Source: a virus. From it: 40,906 bases of DNA. Position 1 is the stretch's first letter. The number at the start of each line of letters is the position of its first letter. Location: IMG/VR virus record IMGVR_UViG_3300021431_000039; one strand, given 5' to 3'. Shown here piece by piece: positions 5,146 to 30,632 of the stretch. Below the pieces are notes generated by a model. That model saw nothing but the letters and a program-made list of their open reading frames with translations, was not told where the DNA came from and made no database searches. The position numbers were made by a program, and so were the translations under genes.

Positions 5146-5418
5146 ATGATGGAATTACATGAAGAAACAGATGATCAGTTATCATTTGCAGAAGATGTTG
5201 TCAATCATCCATCCCACTATTGTCAGGATGGTGGAATGGAATGTATTGATGAAATGATAGCAGTCTTTGGAAAAACAGCAACTATACACTTTTGCCTTTT
5301 GAATGTATGGAAGTACAGAAAAAGGGCAGTGTTCAAGAATGGTGCTGAAGATATGAAGAAAGCTGATTGGTACATGAAGAAGTATATGGAACTTAGTAGA
5401 AAGACGGTGAACTACTGA
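5146..5418 (+). CDS. DUF3310-family phage protein
   Basis: NHPSHY motif near the N-terminus, about 90 aa, typical context in phage replication modules. Confidence 0.7.
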   Translation: MMELHEETDDQLSFAEDVVNHPSHYCQDGGMECIDEMIAVFGKTATIHFCLLNVWKYRKRAVFKNGAEDMKKADWYMKKYMELSRKTVNY

Positions 5419-5912
5419 TGAATTATCATAATATTACAAAAGATGATATGAACAATGGTGATGGTTTGCGTGTTGTTCTTTGGGTAGCAGGATGCAGTCA
5501 CCATTGTAAAGGTTGTCAGAACCCTGTGACATGGAATCCTGATGATGGTATTGAATTTGATATCAGAGCAAAGAATGAAATCTTCAAGGAACTGAAAAAA
5601 AAGCACATTGCAGGAATCACATTTAGCGGTGGTGACCCTTTATTTTCAACCAACAAGGGGACAGTTTTCAGTCTGTGTCAGGAAATCAAAAAGATGTTTC
5701 CAACTAAGACCATCTGGATTTATACAGGCTATGATTGGGAAGATATAAAAAACGAACCATTGATGAAATATATTGATATTTTAGTAGATGGAAAATTCAT
5801 TGAAGAATTGAAGGATGTCAATTATCCTTGGGCAGGTTCTATCAATCAAATGGTAATTGATGTTCAGGAATCATTAAAAGAAAAGAAGGTGATTTTACAT
5901 GAAAGTAATTAA
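5418..5912 (+). CDS. nrdG: Anaerobic ribonucleotide reductase activating protein (radical SAM)
   Basis: CSHHCKGCQNP (CxxxCxxC) cluster motif. About 160 aa. Overlaps and precedes nrdD. Confidence 0.9.
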   Translation: MNYHNITKDDMNNGDGLRVVLWVAGCSHHCKGCQNPVTWNPDDGIEFDIRAKNEIFKELKKKHIAGITFSGGDPLFSTNKGTVFSLCQEIKKMFPTKTIWIYTGYDWEDIKNEPLMKYIDILVDGKFIEELKDVNYPWAGSINQMVIDVQESLKEKKVILHESN

Positions 5913-8019
5913 GAAAGATGGAACACTTGAAGACTACAATTTTATAAAGATTAAAAATGCAGTCACAAAATCTGCAAAAAGAGTCATGATTGACCTTGAT
6001 GATGAAGCATTTGACAGACTAAAAGACATTGTTGAATTAAAACTGTCATTGCTGAACACAGAACTGATTCCAATTGCAGACATGCACAATGTTGTGGAAG
6101 AATCATTGGAACAGTTTGATCCAAGAATTGCAAAATCTTATAAAGATTATCGCAACTATAAAAAGGATTTTGTTCATATGATGGACAAGGTATATCAGAA
6201 ATCACAGTCCATCAGATTCATTGGTGATAAAGAGAATGCAAACACTGACAGCACATTGGTAGCAACTAAAAGATGCTTAATATTCAATGAGCTAAATAAA
6301 AGACTGTACAGAAAGTTTTTTATGACACAGGAAGAACTTCAAGCATGTAAGGATGGTTATATCTATGTGCATGACCAATCAGCAAGATTGGACACAATGA
6401 ACTGTTGTCTGTGTGATGTGGCTTCAATTATGTCAGGTGGTTTTGAGATGGGTAACGTTTGGTATAACGAACCCAAAACACTTGATACAGCATTTGATGT
6501 TATGGGTGATATCATCCTTTCAACAGCATCACAACAATATGGTGGATTCACAGTTCCTGAAGTAGACAAGATTCTTGCACCTTATGCTGAAAAGTCATTC
6601 AAGAAATATATTAATGAATATCTGAACATCACTGTAGGTGATCATAAAAATGCAGAATGTTGGGCAAGAAGCAAAGTTAAAAGAGACTTTGAACAGGGGT
6701 TTCAAGGAATAGAAATGAAGCTGAACACAGTTGGTTCAAGCAGAGGTGATTATCCATTTGTCACAATGACGTTTGGTCTTGCAACAGACGAATTTGGAAA
6801 GATGGCATCCATCACATTCCTTGAAGTTCATGCAAAGGGACAGGGCAAGGAAGGAAACAAAAAGCCTGTGTTGTTTCCTAAGTTGGTATTTTTGTATGAT
6901 GAAAATCTGCATGGTGAAGGATGCATCAATGAAGATGTCTTTGAAGCAGGGATTGAATGCAGTTCCAAAACAATGTACCCTGATTGGTTATCACTGACAG
7001 GTGAAGGATATGTTGCTTCCATGTATAAGAAATATGGAAGGGTTGTTTCCCCTATGGGATGTAGGGCATTCTTATCACCTTGGTATGAAAAAGGTGGAAT
7101 GCAACCTGCTGATGAATCAGACAAACCTGTGTTTGTTGGAAGATTCAATATTGGTGCAGTCAGTCTTCATCTTCCAATGATTCTTGCAAAGTCAAGACAG
7201 GAAAATAAAGACTTCTATGAAGTCCTTGATTATTACCTGAATATGATTAGGAAAATCCATCAAAGAACCTATGACTATCTTGGTGAAATGAAAGCATCAA
7301 CCAATCCTATCCAATACTGTGAAGGTGGTTTCTATGGTGGGCATCTGAAACCTTCAGACAAAATCAAACCATTGCTGAAACCAATGACAGCATCTTTTGG
7401 AATTACAGCATTGAATGAACTTCAGGAACTTTACAATGGGAAATCCCTTGTGGAAGATGGACAGTTTGCATTGGATGTTCTGAAGTATATCAATGACAAG
7501 GTGAATGAATTCAAGGAAGAAGATGGTTGGTTGTATGCGATCTATGGAACACCTGCTGAATCACTTTGTGGTCTTCAGATTGAACAGTTCAGAAAAATGT
7601 ATGGTGTGATTGAAAATGTATCTGACAGACCTTATGTTTCAAACAGTTTCCATTGTCATGTGACTGAAAATATTACACCAATTCAGAAGCAGGATTTAGA
7701 AGGTAGATTTTGGGATTTATGCAATGGTGGGAAAATCCAATATGTTAGATATCCAATCAGCTACAACAAAGATGCAATCAGGACATTAGTCAGAAGGGCA
7801 ATGGATAAAGGTTTCTATGAAGGTGTGAACTTGTCACTTGCATATTGTGATGACTGTGGACATCAGGAACTTGAAATGGATGTGTGTCCTGTGTGTGGTT
7901 CAACGAACCTGACAAAGATTGACAGAATGAATGGTTATTTATCATATAGCAGGGTACATGGTGATACAAGATTGAACAGTGCCAAAATGGCAGAAATTAA
8001 AGAAAGGAAATCAATGTAA
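5899..8019 (+). CDS. nrdD: Anaerobic (class III) ribonucleoside-triphosphate reductase
   Basis: N-terminal ATP-cone-like segment, C-terminal zinc ribbon CDDCGH...CPVCGS and glycyl-radical motif RMNGYLS. 706 aa. Confidence 0.9.
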   Translation: MKVIKKDGTLEDYNFIKIKNAVTKSAKRVMIDLDDEAFDRLKDIVELKLSLLNTELIPIADMHNVVEESLEQFDPRIAKSYKDYRNYKKDFVHMMDKVYQKSQSIRFIGDKENANTDSTLVATKRCLIFNELNKRLYRKFFMTQEELQACKDGYIYVHDQSARLDTMNCCLCDVASIMSGGFEMGNVWYNEPKTLDTAFDVMGDIILSTASQQYGGFTVPEVDKILAPYAEKSFKKYINEYLNITVGDHKNAECWARSKVKRDFEQGFQGIEMKLNTVGSSRGDYPFVTMTFGLATDEFGKMASITFLEVHAKGQGKEGNKKPVLFPKLVFLYDENLHGEGCINEDVFEAGIECSSKTMYPDWLSLTGEGYVASMYKKYGRVVSPMGCRAFLSPWYEKGGMQPADESDKPVFVGRFNIGAVSLHLPMILAKSRQENKDFYEVLDYYLNMIRKIHQRTYDYLGEMKASTNPIQYCEGGFYGGHLKPSDKIKPLLKPMTASFGITALNELQELYNGKSLVEDGQFALDVLKYINDKVNEFKEEDGWLYAIYGTPAESLCGLQIEQFRKMYGVIENVSDRPYVSNSFHCHVTENITPIQKQDLEGRFWDLCNGGKIQYVRYPISYNKDAIRTLVRRAMDKGFYEGVNLSLAYCDDCGHQELEMDVCPVCGSTNLTKIDRMNGYLSYSRVHGDTRLNSAKMAEIKERKSM

Positions 8020-8021
8020 TT

Positions 8022-8357
8022 ATGAACGGAAAAGAATATCAGAAATTAGCAATGAGAACATGCAGTATTCCATATGACAACAATAAAGGAAGATTGCATC
8101 ATGCAGTGTTTGGACTTACTTCAGAAGCAGGTGAAGTTGCAGGAATCCTTCAGAAGGTATATCAGGGACATGGATTTGACAAAGATCATATCAAGAAAGA
8201 ACTTGGTGACTGTCTTTGGATGATTGCTGAAGCATGTGAAGCACTTGACCTTGATATGGATGATGTGATGCAGACAAACATTGATAAGCTGAAAGCAAGA
8301 TATCCTGAAGGGTTTAGTGCTGACAGGTCACTTCACAGAAAAGAAGGTGACATTTAA
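8022..8357 (+). CDS. mazG: MazG-like nucleotide pyrophosphohydrolase
   Basis: EAGEVAG...ELGDCLW...DLD pattern of the all-alpha NTP-PPase fold; about 110 aa. Confidence 0.8.
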   Translation: MNGKEYQKLAMRTCSIPYDNNKGRLHHAVFGLTSEAGEVAGILQKVYQGHGFDKDHIKKELGDCLWMIAEACEALDLDMDDVMQTNIDKLKARYPEGFSADRSLHRKEGDI

Positions 8358-26181: not shown

Positions 26182-26408
26182 ATATACCATTATCTGTCTT
26201 ATTAGAAAATACAAAAATCAGAATGAATGATTCTGTGAATAAAGTTATTCAGGAATCAAATCTTCCTGCTTATCTGATAGAAGGAATTCTGTCAGATATT
26301 CTTGCAGAAGTCAGAAAACAGAAGAATCTTGAATTAGCATCTGACTATGCAAGTATGAATAAAGAAAATCAGAAAAATGAAGAAGATGAAAAGGAAGGTG
26401 AAGAATAA
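26178..26408 (+). CDS. Hypothetical small acidic protein (76 aa)
   Basis: ATGA overlap with Tal and TAATG overlap with the fibre gene. Confidence 0.55.
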   Translation: MNIPLSVLLENTKIRMNDSVNKVIQESNLPAYLIEGILSDILAEVRKQKNLELASDYASMNKENQKNEEDEKEGEE

Positions 26409-28504
26409 TGGCAAACATTAAACCCTATACAGATGAAATTGCAAATGCTGTGTATGGTGAAGAAGTCAGAAGTTCAATCATCAATGCACTGAATAAAGTC
26501 AATGATGATAATAACAGTTATCAGGACATCAAGAATCAGATTGTTGCTTCCAAGGATGATGTTGATGAAGCTGTTTCAGAATTTGATGCAAAGGTTGCTT
26601 CAGCACAAGATGCAACAACAGCACTTATCAATGCAACTACTTCAGCAAACACGACAAAGTCTGAACTTATCAATGCAACTACTTCAGCAAACACAGCAAG
26701 AACCAACTTAGTTTCTGCAACTACTTCAGCAAACAATGCTGAAAGCACACTGAAGTCAGCAACATCAACTGCACAGACTGCAACAGCATCTGCAAATGAT
26801 GTAAAGAAGAATCTTGATTCTTCCATCAGTTCAGCAAATAGTGCTAAATCTGCACTTGATACTGCAATCAGCAACGCAAATACAGCTAAATCAAATCTTG
26901 ATACAAGTACATCAACAGGTAGCACTGTAAAGAACAATCTTGATACTGCAATCAGTAATGCAACCGATGCAAGAAGTGAATTGAATGCAGTTATTAGTTC
27001 GGCACAGTCTGCACAGTCATCTTTGTCAGGTGTTATTGCACAGGCATCAACAGCACAGACAAACCTTCAGAATGCAACTAACAGTGCAACCAATGTCTTC
27101 AATCAGCTTACTGCTGAAAATGTTTCAGCAAAAGCAAACCTTGATGCATTAAGAAGTGAAGACTTCAATGCACAGGAAATTCTGTCAGGTGTAACAGATA
27201 TCAGAGCATATCTTGGAATGATTGAAACAGAAGATGTTCTTGGTATCACTATGGACTATAAGAACAAGACCTGCACAAGAATAGCAGGTGCAAAGAATCT
27301 GACAGCAGGTGCAGACTTTGACAAGTTCAACATGTATGGTGGAAGAAAAAGATGCAATGTGTCGGATGGTGGAACAATCAACGCTTACTATGGTGATGAA
27401 AATTACACAGAAGATGGTTCAAATGGTCAGGTCATGGTATATCAGCCTAAGTTCTATTATCTTGTGTGTCCACTTGAATATGACAGACAGGAAACAGGCT
27501 ATGGTTATCATTTAAGAAAAGCAAACTACTATGTCAGTGAAAAACAAAGGGCTGGATTCAAACTTCATCCTGCATTCTATGACAAGAATGGAAATGAAGT
27601 TGATTATATCCTTATGTCAGCATATGAAGGATGTATCTATGACACATCTGCAAATGCTTATATGCTGAATGATGAACAGGTTATGGATGCTTCTGAAGAC
27701 AAGTTCAGTTCCATTGCAGGTGCAAGACCTGCAACAGGTGTATCACAGAATCTGACAAGACCAAACATTGAACAGATGGCAAAGAATAGGGGTGAAGGCT
27801 GGCATTCCTTTGGAATCAAAACAGCATCTATGGAACAGTTGCTGATGATTGTTGAAATGGGAATGATGAATCTTCAAACTGCTATTGGTCAGGGTGTTGT
27901 CAATCTTCCTTGGACAACAGGTTCTGACACAACAAGTTCTTATGCAGGTGCAACAGGTTCAACTGCTTCACTTGGTAATGGAACAGGTAGAGCAACAGAA
28001 ACAACCACATATGAAGGTGGTGTTGCAACAGAAAACACAGCAGATGGAAAAACTTCTATTTGTTATCGTGGTGTTGAAAACTTTTGGGGTAACATTTGGA
28101 AGTTTGTCTATGGTGTAAATATTTGGGGCAATGGAAAAATGGCAGGTGGTATGCCTTACATCTGTTCAGACTTCAATTACGCTGAAGGAAAGAACACAGA
28201 CAATTATGAAGGTGCAGGATTCACAGTCACAAAAGCAAATGGATATATTTCAGCAATGGGATATTCTACTAAATATGACTGGTTATTCATGGCATCTGAA
28301 TGCCTTGGGAACAGTTCATTGCCTGTTGGTGATTATACTTATATCACTGAAAACCTAAATGGATATAGGGTTCCTCTATTGGGCGGTGGTTGGGGTCATG
28401 GTTCTGTTGCAGGTGGTTTCTATTGGGGTTTGCATGGCGGTGTTGGGGGTCGTGATCGTGGTATCGGCGGTCGCTTGGTGTATGTACCAACAGTCACTGT
28501 TTAA
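26408..28504 (+). CDS. Tail fibre / receptor-binding protein; DGR target with a C-terminal C-type-lectin (FGE-like) variable region
   Basis: Conserved fibre N-terminus, a Ser/Ala/Thr/Asn-rich repeat stalk, and a C-terminal ...GGGWGHGSVAGGFYWGLHGGVGGRDRGIGGRL encoded by the VR. Confidence 0.8.
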   Translation: MANIKPYTDEIANAVYGEEVRSSIINALNKVNDDNNSYQDIKNQIVASKDDVDEAVSEFDAKVASAQDATTALINATTSANTTKSELINATTSANTARTNLVSATTSANNAESTLKSATSTAQTATASANDVKKNLDSSISSANSAKSALDTAISNANTAKSNLDTSTSTGSTVKNNLDTAISNATDARSELNAVISSAQSAQSSLSGVIAQASTAQTNLQNATNSATNVFNQLTAENVSAKANLDALRSEDFNAQEILSGVTDIRAYLGMIETEDVLGITMDYKNKTCTRIAGAKNLTAGADFDKFNMYGGRKRCNVSDGGTINAYYGDENYTEDGSNGQVMVYQPKFYYLVCPLEYDRQETGYGYHLRKANYYVSEKQRAGFKLHPAFYDKNGNEVDYILMSAYEGCIYDTSANAYMLNDEQVMDASEDKFSSIAGARPATGVSQNLTRPNIEQMAKNRGEGWHSFGIKTASMEQLLMIVEMGMMNLQTAIGQGVVNLPWTTGSDTTSSYAGATGSTASLGNGTGRATETTTYEGGVATENTADGKTSICYRGVENFWGNIWKFVYGVNIWGNGKMAGGMPYICSDFNYAEGKNTDNYEGAGFTVTKANGYISAMGYSTKYDWLFMASECLGNSSLPVGDYTYITENLNGYRVPLLGGGWGHGSVAGGFYWGLHGGVGGRDRGIGGRLVYVPTVTV
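26624..26749 (+). repeat. Three tandem 42-nt (14-aa) repeats (LINATTSANTxxxx) in the fibre stalk; more degenerate copies continue to about 27150
   Basis: Units 26624-26665, 26666-26707 and 26708-26749 are near-identical at the nucleotide level. Confidence 0.85.
28367..28484 (+). repeat. DGR variable region (VR)
   Basis: Ungapped alignment to 28584-28701. There are 31 mismatches, all opposite TR adenines. Confidence 0.9.
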
Positions 28505-28583
28505 TTAAATATATGGGTTAGGTAATTGTTGATGGCAACATCTTCCACCTTGTTGTTATATCTGTACACAATAAAACATTTTC

Positions 28584-28701
28584 AAGATTACTCAATTAGG
28601 CAGTAATTGGAATAATGGTTCTAATGCAGGTAGTTTCTATTGGAATTTGAATAACAGTGTTGGGAATCGTAATCGTAATATCAGCAGTCACTTAGTAAAT
28701 G
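28584..28701 (+). repeat. DGR template repeat (TR)
   Basis: Contains 40 adenines. In the VR frame it reads KITQLGSNWNNGSNAGSFYWNLNNSVGNRNRNISSHLVN (AAY-rich). It is non-coding and lies between the target gene and the RT. Confidence 0.9.
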
Positions 28702-28713
28702 CGTGGTTGATTT

Positions 28714-28741
28714 CAGGCAGTCCAAAAGGACTGTCTGTTTT
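28714..28741 (+). other. Strong hairpin 12 nt after the TR (10-bp stem with one G-U pair, AAAA loop, then TTTT): DGR RNA spacer structure or intrinsic terminator
   Basis: CAGGCAGTCC-AAAA-GGACTGTCTG-TTTT. A second 7-bp hairpin lies at 28796-28815. Confidence 0.55.
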
Positions 28742-28913
28742 CATATAAAAATTGTGGAAATTACTTGACCCTGCCACTTGGCAAAACACAAAAGTCTGTC
28801 ATTCATTGATGACAGCACATGGAATAAATCTGTTTTGGTAAATCCTGAAGGGAAGTTGAAGAATCAGAAACACGCATACAAAAATGACAGAAAGAATTGG
28901 TGGTTGTGATTAT

Positions 28914-30032
28914 ATGAAGCGTTATGGACATTTATATAAAAAGATTTATGATATGGAAAATTTGAAGTTGGCACACCAACATGCAAAGAAAGGGAAAGGA
29001 TTGTATGCAGAAGTACAAATGATTGATTCTGACCCTGACAAGTACCTGAAGGAATTGCAGGACATGCTGATAAATAAAACCTATCATACATCTGAATATG
29101 AAGTGTTCTATAAAAATGAGCATGGGAAGATAAGAAAGATTTATAAACTTCCTTATTTTCCTGACAGGGTTGCACAGTGGGCAATCTTGCAGGTAATTGA
29201 ACCATATTTGATCAAGCACCTTATTTCTGATACCTTTTCAGCAATACCTGACAGGGGAATTCATAAAGGACTTAGCAGGGTAATGAAAGCAGTTCAACAT
29301 GATGTTCCAAACTGTCAATATTGTTTGAAGATAGATGCAAGACATTATTATCAATCAGTGAATCATGACATTCTGAAACAGAAATACAGAAAGATGTTCA
29401 AAGACAATGACCTTCTTTGGATTCTTGATGAAATCATTGATTCAATCAATACAGCAGAAGATGAAGACCTTGTTTCAATATGGTTGTTAGATGAAGACAT
29501 TGATCCAAACACAGGGATTCCAATTGGAAACTATCTGTCGCAGTATAGTGGGAATTATTACTTCAGTGATTTTGATCATTGGATAAAAGAAGTCAAGCAT
29601 GTCAAATACTACTTCAGATACATGGATGACATTGTAATTCTTGCAAGAACTAAGAAAGAATTGCATCAGTTGCTGAATGAAATCAATGAATACTTTCATA
29701 AAAATATGAAGTTAAAAATCAAGAAGAATTATCAAGTGTTTCCAACTTATGTCAGGGGTATTGATTACCTTGGTTATAGAGTGTTTGTTTCCTATGTGTT
29801 ACTAAGAAAGCAGACTTGCAAAGACATGAAGAAGAAAATGGTGAAGATAAAGAAGAAAGTTGAATCAGGGAACATGATGAACTATTCAGAATGGTGTTCA
29901 ATAAATTCTTACAAAGGTTGGACTAAGCATGGAAATTGTTTCAGACTGACACAGAAATATATTGAACCATTGATTCCATATGCAACTAAATATTATGAAT
30001 TGAATGTCAAGAAAGGTGGAAAAGTAGCATGA
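28914..30032 (+). CDS. DGR-type reverse transcriptase
   Basis: IPDRGIHKG, LKIDARHYYQSV, IPIGNYLSQYSGNYYF (DGR-specific [IV]GxxxSQ motif), YMDDIVIL (YxDD), IDYLGYRV. ATG 28914 gives the usual MKRYGHLY...NL..A start; the track start is 28884. Confidence 0.9.
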   Translation: MKRYGHLYKKIYDMENLKLAHQHAKKGKGLYAEVQMIDSDPDKYLKELQDMLINKTYHTSEYEVFYKNEHGKIRKIYKLPYFPDRVAQWAILQVIEPYLIKHLISDTFSAIPDRGIHKGLSRVMKAVQHDVPNCQYCLKIDARHYYQSVNHDILKQKYRKMFKDNDLLWILDEIIDSINTAEDEDLVSIWLLDEDIDPNTGIPIGNYLSQYSGNYYFSDFDHWIKEVKHVKYYFRYMDDIVILARTKKELHQLLNEINEYFHKNMKLKIKKNYQVFPTYVRGIDYLGYRVFVSYVLLRKQTCKDMKKKMVKIKKKVESGNMMNYSEWCSINSYKGWTKHGNCFRLTQKYIEPLIPYATKYYELNVKKGGKVA

Positions 30033-30295
30033 AACAGTATGGAACACAAAGAAGCACAGTGAAACCTGAAGATGTGGAAATCACTGAATCAAAGGTCTTC
30101 AGTTATGAAAATATCACTGAAATCAAGGTGAAGAATCCTGAATCAGATGATGAAGTCACAATGTATGAATTCACTTTGACAGAGTATGACAAAGATGAAT
30201 ATATCAGGATTCAGGCAGAAAAGAATGCAAGTCTTGAAGAACAGATGACACAGACACAGGTTGCACTGTGTGACGTGTATGAAATGTTAGCATAG
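30029..30295 (+). CDS. Hypothetical acidic protein (88 aa)
   Basis: ATGA overlap with the RT stop. No motif recognised. Confidence 0.55.
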   Translation: MKQYGTQRSTVKPEDVEITESKVFSYENITEIKVKNPESDDEVTMYEFTLTEYDKDEYIRIQAEKNASLEEQMTQTQVALCDVYEMLA

Positions 30296-30312: not shown

Positions 30313-30453
30313 ATGGTGAAGATTTATGCAACACTTATCATCAAGGGAATCAAAACCATTGATGATGTACCAACAAGAATCAAAGATGAAGTCAGGCAGG
30401 AATTGATCAAAGAAGGTCATCCTGAACTTGCTGAAGTAGGTGATGAAGGTTGA
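30313..30453 (+). CDS. Micro-protein (46 aa), paralogue 1 (CD1375-like?)
   Basis: Hand translation gives MVKIYATLIIKGIKTIDDVPTRIKDEVRQELIKEGHPELAEVGDEG. RBS GAAAGGA lies upstream. Not in the track because it is under 60 aa. Confidence 0.5.
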   Translation: MVKIYATLIIKGIKTIDDVPTRIKDEVRQELIKEGHPELAEVGDEG

Positions 30454-30500
30454 TAACCAATCTTATCATAAATATTTTATTTAGAAAGGAAGTGGAAAAC

Positions 30501-30632
30501 ATGGCAGTCGTATATGCAACACTTATTATCAAAGGTGTGAAGACAATTGATGATGTCCCTGCAAGAATCAAGGACAAGGTTATTCAGGTTCTGATTGACC
30601 TTGATTGTCGTGATTTAGCAGGTCAGGCATAA
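30501..30632 (+). CDS. Micro-protein (43 aa), paralogue 2
   Basis: MAVVYATLIIKGVKTIDDVPARIKDKVIQVLIDLDCRDLAGQA. ATG follows GAAAGGAAGTGGA. Confidence 0.55.
   Translation: MAVVYATLIIKGVKTIDDVPARIKDKVIQVLIDLDCRDLAGQA

Follow-up and report, generated by a model that had tools for sequence, protein, structure and literature searches.

The virus sequence IMGVR_UViG_3300021431_000039 of IMG/VR, 40,906 nucleotides (nt) long and referred to below in its entirety as the window, carries a diversity-generating retroelement (DGR) of a temperate phage of the Firmicutes type. The element consists of a template repeat (TR) and a variable repeat (VR) that differ in an adenine-specific manner, the VR lying at the 3′ end of a coding target gene and the TR in the non-coding gap between this gene and that of a nearby reverse transcriptase (RT) of the DGR lineage. 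A preliminary description of this DNA had pointed out that most adenines substituted in the VR are replaced by guanine, and had offered several possible causes for the skew. The parts of the element concerned are listed below, with Y denoting a pyrimidine.

26408..28504, plus strand: DGR target gene; its product, a variable protein of 698 aa, resembles tail fibres and combines an N-terminal coiled-coil part with the VR at the C-terminus.
28367..28484, plus strand: VR, 118 nt, encoding RVPLLGGGWGHGSVAGGFYWGLHGGVGGRDRGIGGRLVY, with 31 differences from the TR, all at TR adenines.
28388..28461, plus strand: hypervariable VR core, ten codons templated by TR AAY codons (TR 28605-28678), delimited from per-site tables of 149 alleles and the allele ranking.
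28466..28482, plus strand: 3′ portion of the VR, rich in G+C, GGCGGTCGCTTGGTGTA as against AGCAGTCACTTAGTAAA in the TR; the differences are constant across relatives.
28584..28701, plus strand: TR, non-coding, with 40 adenines, 20 of them in ten AAY codons.
28884..30032, plus strand: DGR reverse transcriptase, 382 aa (Pfam RVT_1, 4e-20).

Between the VR and the stop codon of the target open reading frame (ORF) lie 20 nt, and the RT gene starts 183 nt downstream of the TR. The best solved relative of the RT is bRT of the Bordetella phage (8ub7, E 1e-25). The RT of the window retains the IGxxxSQ motif as well as the residues that align with R74 and I181 of bRT.

Compared without gaps, the VR (28367-28484) and the TR (28584-28701) form a 118-nt direct repeat with an offset of 217, in which all 31 mismatches fall on TR adenines and none on TR cytosines, guanines or thymines. 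The 40 TR adenines correspond in the VR to 9 A, 25 G, 3 C and 3 T, in full agreement with the hand count of the preliminary description, and the VR peptide reported there is the same as the translation. Under an even spectrum of A-to-C/G/T changes, the probability of at least 25 G among 31 substitutions is 8.6e-8; it becomes 4e-4 at a G share of ~50%, as in DGR surveys, and 0.19 at the whole-VR G share of the related DGR family (72%). The skew of the window is real and far from an even spectrum, yet it is ordinary for the family when taken over the whole repeat (81% G). The premise that DGR mutagenesis shows no strong preference, from which the skew had appeared so marked, is out of date, G being the commonest substitution in surveys (PMC3521204; PMC6642488).

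RT-based searches of viral contigs, genomes and metagenomes yielded ~180 related loci, mostly of human gut Lachnospiraceae and related Firmicutes, and a script for repeat pairs with adenine-specific mismatches returned 149 distinct TR/VR alleles, which here stand in for population reads of the phage. Of these, 31 (the window included) have a TR at least 97% identical to that of the window and are referred to as the close group. All 31 VRs of the close group differ at AAY codons and, consequently, the element is active in nature. Pooled over the first 90 loci, TR adenines read 1205 A, 1555 G, 233 C and 361 T, with a whole-VR G share of substitutions of 72% and per-locus values in the family of 42-94%. 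A per-column table of the alleles separates the adenines into two classes, one of which (class II) reads G in almost every allele. Class II comprises the nine TR adenines in the 5′-AG-3′ context (28585, 28598, 28602, 28628, 28632, 28656, 28683, 28686 and 28694), 28690 (context CAC) and, within the close group, 28697 (context GTA).

Counted between the first and the last mismatch of each pair, the AG-context adenines of the 149 alleles read 964 G, 36 A, 1 C and 1 T of 1002. The rule extends to AG sites in synonymous third positions (GCA-G, TTA-G, CTA-G, GTA-G and GGA-G, with the hyphen at the codon boundary), at which 254 G, 7 A and no C or T were found; A is retained equally at synonymous and non-synonymous AG sites (p=0.5), and the retained A are Poisson-scattered, with 0, 1 and 2 per allele in 122, 23 and 4 alleles, respectively. 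At the same columns, a C in the TR is matched by a C in the VR in 28/28 and 24/24 cases, and TR C or T is copied faithfully. Because the TR C reappears in the VR at these very columns, the AG sites lie inside the tract copied from the TR. Across the family, 4% of adenines stay A in the AG context vs 35-49% in the AA and AT contexts. Mutation rather than amino-acid selection accounts for the AG rule. The five glycines derived from AGY codons (now GGY) form a constant scaffold, with Gly in essentially all alleles. A wider formulation, namely, a general slippage that re-uses the previous template base, was tried and rejected, since AC gives G instead of C, and AT gives few T. A 3′-neighbour rule may also hold for AC contexts, where selection is inseparable from mutation.

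The 3′ end of the VR follows the same pattern, with 28683, 28686, 28690 and 28694 read as G in 97-100% of alleles and sites 28697 and 28698 fixed inside the close group. Judging by these constant differences, this G+C-rich segment resembles an initiation of mutagenic homing (IMH) sequence and may function as one; no inverted repeat of at least 8 nt was found downstream of the VR. At the last three TR adenines, 28697-28699 (VR 28480-28482), the differences do not vary: 28698 is T in the VR of 60/61 alleles with A there in the TR, and 28699 is always A. These fixed differences probably mark the 3′ boundary of the copied tract.

The 20 adenines of the AAY codons present a different picture. In the relatives, they read 44% A, 30% G, 11% C and 14% T; G accounts for 54% of the substitutions, and C or T for 46%. 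GGY codons arise there about as often as expected if the two adenines were independent (71 observed vs 74.5 expected), whereas Tyr, Ser and Ala are in excess among the outcomes and Cys and Pro are depleted. A view of the error spectrum free of such filtering is provided by the TR codon CAA (28593-28595), which is four-fold degenerate once its middle A is mutated. The neutral site 28595 (context AAT) reads A 77, G 27, C 6 and T 3, so that 32% of copies are mutated and G makes up 75% of the substitutions. Moreover, G at 28595 predicts G over T at 28594 (CGG 23 and CGA 26 vs CTG 3 and CTA 47; p=3e-6). Because changes at the third position are silent in either codon family, this correlation is a property of the copying process, and it fits an enzyme prone to add C opposite A right after adding C. 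The spectrum at the AAY sites is flatter than at the neutral site, presumably through selection on the binding surface.

Against this background, the 25 G of the window can be assigned to their sources: 10 are at class II sites (eight AG-context adenines, together with the CAC and GTA sites at the 3′ end), 14 are at AAY sites and 1 is a rare variant at 28587, whereas A is kept at the AG site 28628. With 14 G at its 20 AAY adenines, alongside 3 A, 2 C and 1 T, the window is the G-richest of 147 alleles, the next having 12; under the family site frequencies, the probability that the maximum reaches 14 G is 0.04. G counts are mildly overdispersed among alleles (variance 6.2 vs 4.1), and the mutated fraction correlates weakly with the G share. 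GGY occupies 6/10 AAY codons in the window vs 8.6% in the relatives, whose variable codons contain 0-4 Gly (median 0-1), not at the Gly positions of the window; at variable position 10, for instance, Gly occurs in 0/30 close alleles. The conversion of AAY and AGY codons to GGY, in which the preliminary description saw a glycine-saturated region, holds for six AAY-derived codons in this allele, whereas the five AGY-derived glycines are constant in the relatives. The expectation that population data might reveal a single sampled allele was half borne out: the 30 near-identical DGRs show a mixture of bases at the variable sites (A>G>T>C), and the window is one extreme allele, although G is still favoured among the substitutions instead of the bases being equally frequent.

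Several scaffold states of the window are also rare, namely, C at 28590 (0/106 relatives), G at 28587 (5/133) and A at 28628 (2/112), with the result that Pro replaces Ala at 28590, Val replaces Ile and one GCA stays unconverted. Taken together, these features fit a copy made recently and little selected, or simply a place in the tail of the distribution. The RT sequences do not set the window apart: where the RT is 99% identical to that of the window (L008 and L010), the accompanying alleles show 4 and 5 G at the 20 AAY adenines, which renders a phage-specific change of the RT unlikely, and G counts in the 30 other alleles of the close group run from 1 to 12. A distinction between prophage and virion origin was considered as the source of G-rich alleles and abandoned, given that long bacterial contigs hold both a 12-G (L108) and a 1-G (L110) allele.

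The AG rule is confined to a part of the DGR tree. In two control sets of DGRs that carry the accessory protein Avd, 91% and 81% of the internal AG adenines stay A (Fisher 3e-208 for the family against the controls). By contrast, in distant RT relatives (35-50% identity), which include five crAss-like phages, an archaeal virus, Psychrobacillus phage Perkons and two DGRs from metagenome-assembled genomes, AG adenines read G at 49/53 sites. An Avd profile built with jackhmmer from the protein annotated as such in Bacillus phage BalMu-1 matched 0/177 family loci (L001-L183, window included) vs 96/106 control loci (L184-L289), and gave no match in the crAss-like, Perkons or archaeal-virus loci. 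At the locus of the window, no Avd was detected with Pfam, NCBIfam or this profile. Among the DGR loci fetched, the presence of Avd splits cleanly by RT clade, and in the Avd-less clade the TR sits directly between the target and RT genes. Avd is common in DGRs but not universal; hence, its absence marks a subclass of DGRs and does not exclude the element from them.

We consider that these observations are best explained by three contributions acting together, namely, constitutive conversion to G, mainly in the AG context, which supplies most of the A-to-G excess, G-preferring adenine errors at the AAY codons and the sampling of one extreme G-rich allele, and place the probability of this account at roughly 0.7. 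On this account, an active DGR rewrites the C-terminus of the tail-fibre-like protein, with the RT of the Avd-less clade most likely inserting C opposite A almost every time that it has just copied a G, and doing so to a weaker extent when it has just misinserted a C. The AGY (Ser) codons of the TR would then become the GGY (Gly) codons of the scaffold at every retrohoming. At the AAY codons, the same RT would make its ordinary adenine errors, which prefer G in about three-quarters of the substitutions, as at the neutral site, a share that would fall to about one-half in the observed alleles, presumably via selection on the binding surface. The VR of the window would represent a tail allele, possibly fresh and little selected, and would call for no special enzyme. 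Biased misincorporation by the RT, one of the causes proposed in the preliminary description, is thereby retained in a refined form, in keeping with the synonymous AG sites, the 75% neutral G share and the correlation of adjacent neutral sites; the notion that the bias is peculiar to this phage is not, inasmuch as it is context-dependent and clade-wide.

Several points weigh against this account. The counts, the context rule, its restriction to a clade and the rank of the allele are direct readings of the alleles, but the assignment of the AG rule to the RT itself relies on alleles that are already fixed. The analogy with bRT covers the direction of the change only, given that an AG context lowers the error rate of bRT, whereas conversion reaches ~96% in the window family. 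The evidence from synonymous sites comes from the DGR family of the window, and the AG sites of the crAss-like phages are mostly non-synonymous. AC contexts are inconsistent, TAC, CAC and GAC being read as G in 93-100% of cases while the second A of AAC is unchanged in 59%, which leaves room for selection at some scaffold codons. Finally, with 17/20 AAY adenines mutated, the window is a mild outlier even under the neutral spectrum.

Among the other explanations, the one closest to the three-part account, with which it is compatible and whose third part it would refine, is that the allele is a fresh, unselected complementary DNA (cDNA) copy that displays the raw spectrum of the RT, the other alleles having been filtered by selection for receptor binding, or that it was made under a skewed pool of deoxynucleoside triphosphates (dNTPs), with high dCTP relative to dTTP. 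The 75% neutral G share fits the 14 G among 17 AAY substitutions of the window (p=0.35), and the rare scaffold states at 28590, 28587 and 28628, the amino-acid filtering of AAY outcomes in the relatives, the overdispersion of the G counts and the weak correlation between mutated fraction and G share all point the same way; as to the pool, genes for NrdD, NrdG and a MazG-like enzyme, which could shift it, are present in the phage. The proposal draws on a single allele, however, and the 32% of copies mutated at the neutral site compare poorly with the 85% at the AAY sites of the window, so that we regard it as possible but on the unlikely side. A far smaller probability attaches to selection for a glycine-rich ligand-binding surface as the maker of the skew, another cause put forward in the preliminary description. 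The conservation of the five scaffold glycines (TR AGY to GGY) in all relatives and the tolerance of Gly at every variable position would agree with it, but the synonymous AG sites obey the same rule with equal retention of A, and at the variable codons the low, differently placed Gly content of the relatives and the GGY counts close to independence speak against it. It is scarcely more plausible, and in our judgement rather less so, that the RT of the window has been altered toward an unusually strong A-to-G bias: its allele does rank first of 147 for G at AAY sites, yet nearly identical RTs accompany G-poor alleles, the close alleles span 1-12 G, and the residues corresponding to R74 and I181 are conserved.

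Editing of adenosine to inosine in the TR RNA, followed by faithful reverse transcription that reads G, had also been suggested, and would apply to the AG adenines, which change to G only (964 G vs 2 C/T); known adenosine deaminases acting on RNA indeed prefer a 3′ G. Such editing could not produce the 46% of AAY substitutions, or the 6/31 substitutions in the window, that are C or T, and at the AG sites, where it could in principle operate, it is not needed. No deaminase domain was found among the ~28 larger ORFs of the window that were scanned, we know of no bacterial enzyme that edits unstructured mRNA-like RNA at ~96%, and the rule follows the RT clade across Firmicutes, Bacteroidota phages and archaea. 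Furthermore, bRT gives the same AG-to-G direction in Escherichia coli without an added deaminase (bioRxiv 10.1101/2025.03.24.644984). The chances of this explanation are accordingly remote. Those of a repair ratchet, whereby T:G mismatches between the integrated cDNA and the old VR strand are repaired to G:C and G builds up over successive rounds, appear the slimmest of all. Heteroduplexes formed in retrohoming are a substrate of MutS in Bacteroides (bioRxiv 10.1101/2024.11.15.621889), and a ratchet could in principle account for the persistence of G; however, it predicts progressive saturation with G at the AAY sites of all alleles, where the actual figure is 30%, the AG-site contexts (CAG and TAG alike) fit no single known short-patch repair motif, and the repair in Bacteroides is reported to be all-or-nothing.

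The target gene lies directly 3′ of a Prophage_tail/Peptidase_S74 tail protein gene, and its product has only coiled-coil-type matches in Pfam and NCBIfam; its C-terminal 270 aa are conserved among the relatives. The part of the gene for the N-terminal coiled coil contains 42-nt tandem-like repeats in four copies with 62-74% identity (26598-26723 and 26829-26870); repeats of this sort are typical of fibre shafts. As to a C-type-lectin fold, the variable domain has no sequence match in Pfam or PDB, and its AlphaFold model, built from a 33-sequence alignment, is poor, with a predicted local distance difference test score (pLDDT) of 43. Two further features flank the RT gene.

28714..28737, plus strand: hairpin of 10 bp followed by a T-run, an inverted repeat between the TR and the RT gene.
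30029..30295, plus strand: 88-aa ORF overlapping the RT stop codon, with no match in Pfam or NCBIfam; not an Avd.

The hairpin may be part of the spacer of the DGR RNA, which is needed for priming, or a terminator. Between the DGR and the holin gene, 30313-30632 holds two small paralogous ORFs, which form an 83-nt direct repeat of 76% identity (30325-30407 and 30513-30595). The DGR is surrounded by genes for the holin, an endolysin, an integrase, an S24 repressor, the terminase and replication proteins. The phage also encodes NrdD (5899-8019), an NrdG-like radical S-adenosylmethionine activase (5418-5912) and a MazG-type nucleotide pyrophosphohydrolase (8022-8357), and it is a matter of speculation that these enzymes could shift the dNTP pools during infection and hence the error spectrum of the RT.

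For the window itself the finding is modest, its Gly-rich VR being one extreme allele of an ordinary active DGR. On a broader scale, we tentatively suggest, with somewhat less than even confidence, that the RTs of Avd-less DGRs in the Firmicutes-phage family, crAss-like phages and some archaeal viruses perform a programmed, near-deterministic recoding of every AG adenine to G. The TR would hold a 'masked' scaffold (Ser, His, TTA and GCA) that is rewritten to Gly, Arg, TTG and GCG at each retrohoming, and the resulting cDNA would match the G+C-rich 3′ end of the VR and not the TR, which could allow the target to be told from the template without Avd. Should the AG rule stem from the RT itself, roughly one adenine in four of such TRs is no diversity site, and estimates of repertoire size and tools for finding DGRs would arrive at too high a count for a large group of DGRs in gut phages where they take all TR adenines to be variable. 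One RT would then combine faithful, random-error and near-deterministic A-to-G modes, set by the preceding template base, which would be of use in programmable mutagenesis with tools derived from DGR RTs. The association of the rule with a lack of Avd offers a way into the contribution of this protein to fidelity.

The general G preference and an A-to-G bias in the AG context have already been published for the Bordetella RT. The near-complete AG-to-GG conversion in Avd-less DGRs appears to be new; we found no paper on it or on its link to Avd, which is weak evidence given the incomplete coverage of the literature. In DGR surveys, G is the commonest replacement of TR adenines, at about half (DiGReF, PMC3521204; Yan et al. 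2019, PMC6642488), similar to the 54% at the AAY sites of the window family; these surveys pooled all adenines without splitting them by context or RT clade and concluded that substitution is essentially random. Among cultured phages, Clostridium phage CS266P3 (OP172777.1) has a TR 90.7% identical to that of the window and a VR/TR pair (14-119 and 252-357 of the record; L290/L291) with 28 adenine-specific mismatches, in which 9/9 AG sites read G. It differs from the window in that its other substitutions are C-rich rather than G-rich. The pair spans the start of the linear record, in an unannotated region. The entire 47.9-kb record yielded no RT homologue; the enzyme may act in trans or have been lost.

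The DGRs of the crAss-like phages compared (cr6_1, cr52_1, cr60_1, cr53_1, cr50_1 and crAssphage LMMB) resemble that of the window in their RTs (39-43% identical), in the order of tail protein, TR and RT without a recognizable Avd and in the reading of AG as G at 36/38 sites; they belong to phages of another family and host phylum, have a shorter VR scaffold and contribute one allele per phage. In Bordetella phage BPP-1, the DGR (bRT-Avd, Mtd) shares with that of the window a homologous RT, adenine-specific mismatches, AAY codons, a VR at the 3′ end of the tail-fibre gene and a TR beside the RT gene, whereas the window lacks Avd, has AAT rather than AAC codons in its TR and belongs to a family with an AG conversion of ~96%. 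For bRT in cells, C misinsertion makes up 59% of errors, with AAU codons showing a bias for Gly and Asp (PLoS Genet 2026, PMC12875486). With a template G at +1, bRT makes A-to-G changes only, and a 'snowball' effect raises the chance of an error at the next adenine (bioRxiv 10.1101/2025.03.24.644984); a G just read lowers its error rate, which is ~30% on average (bioRxiv 10.1101/2025.03.24.644984; PMC12875486). The bRT enzyme in E. coli and the window family have in common that AG gives only A-to-G, that an error raises the error at the next adenine, that C is the top misinsertion and that AAU codons shift to Gly and Asp, whereas the lower error of bRT at AG is not shared by the family, in which conversion is near complete, and its A-to-C bias in the AC context is not seen. 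It is the Avd-bearing control clades, with 81-91% of AG adenines unchanged, that match the pattern of bRT.

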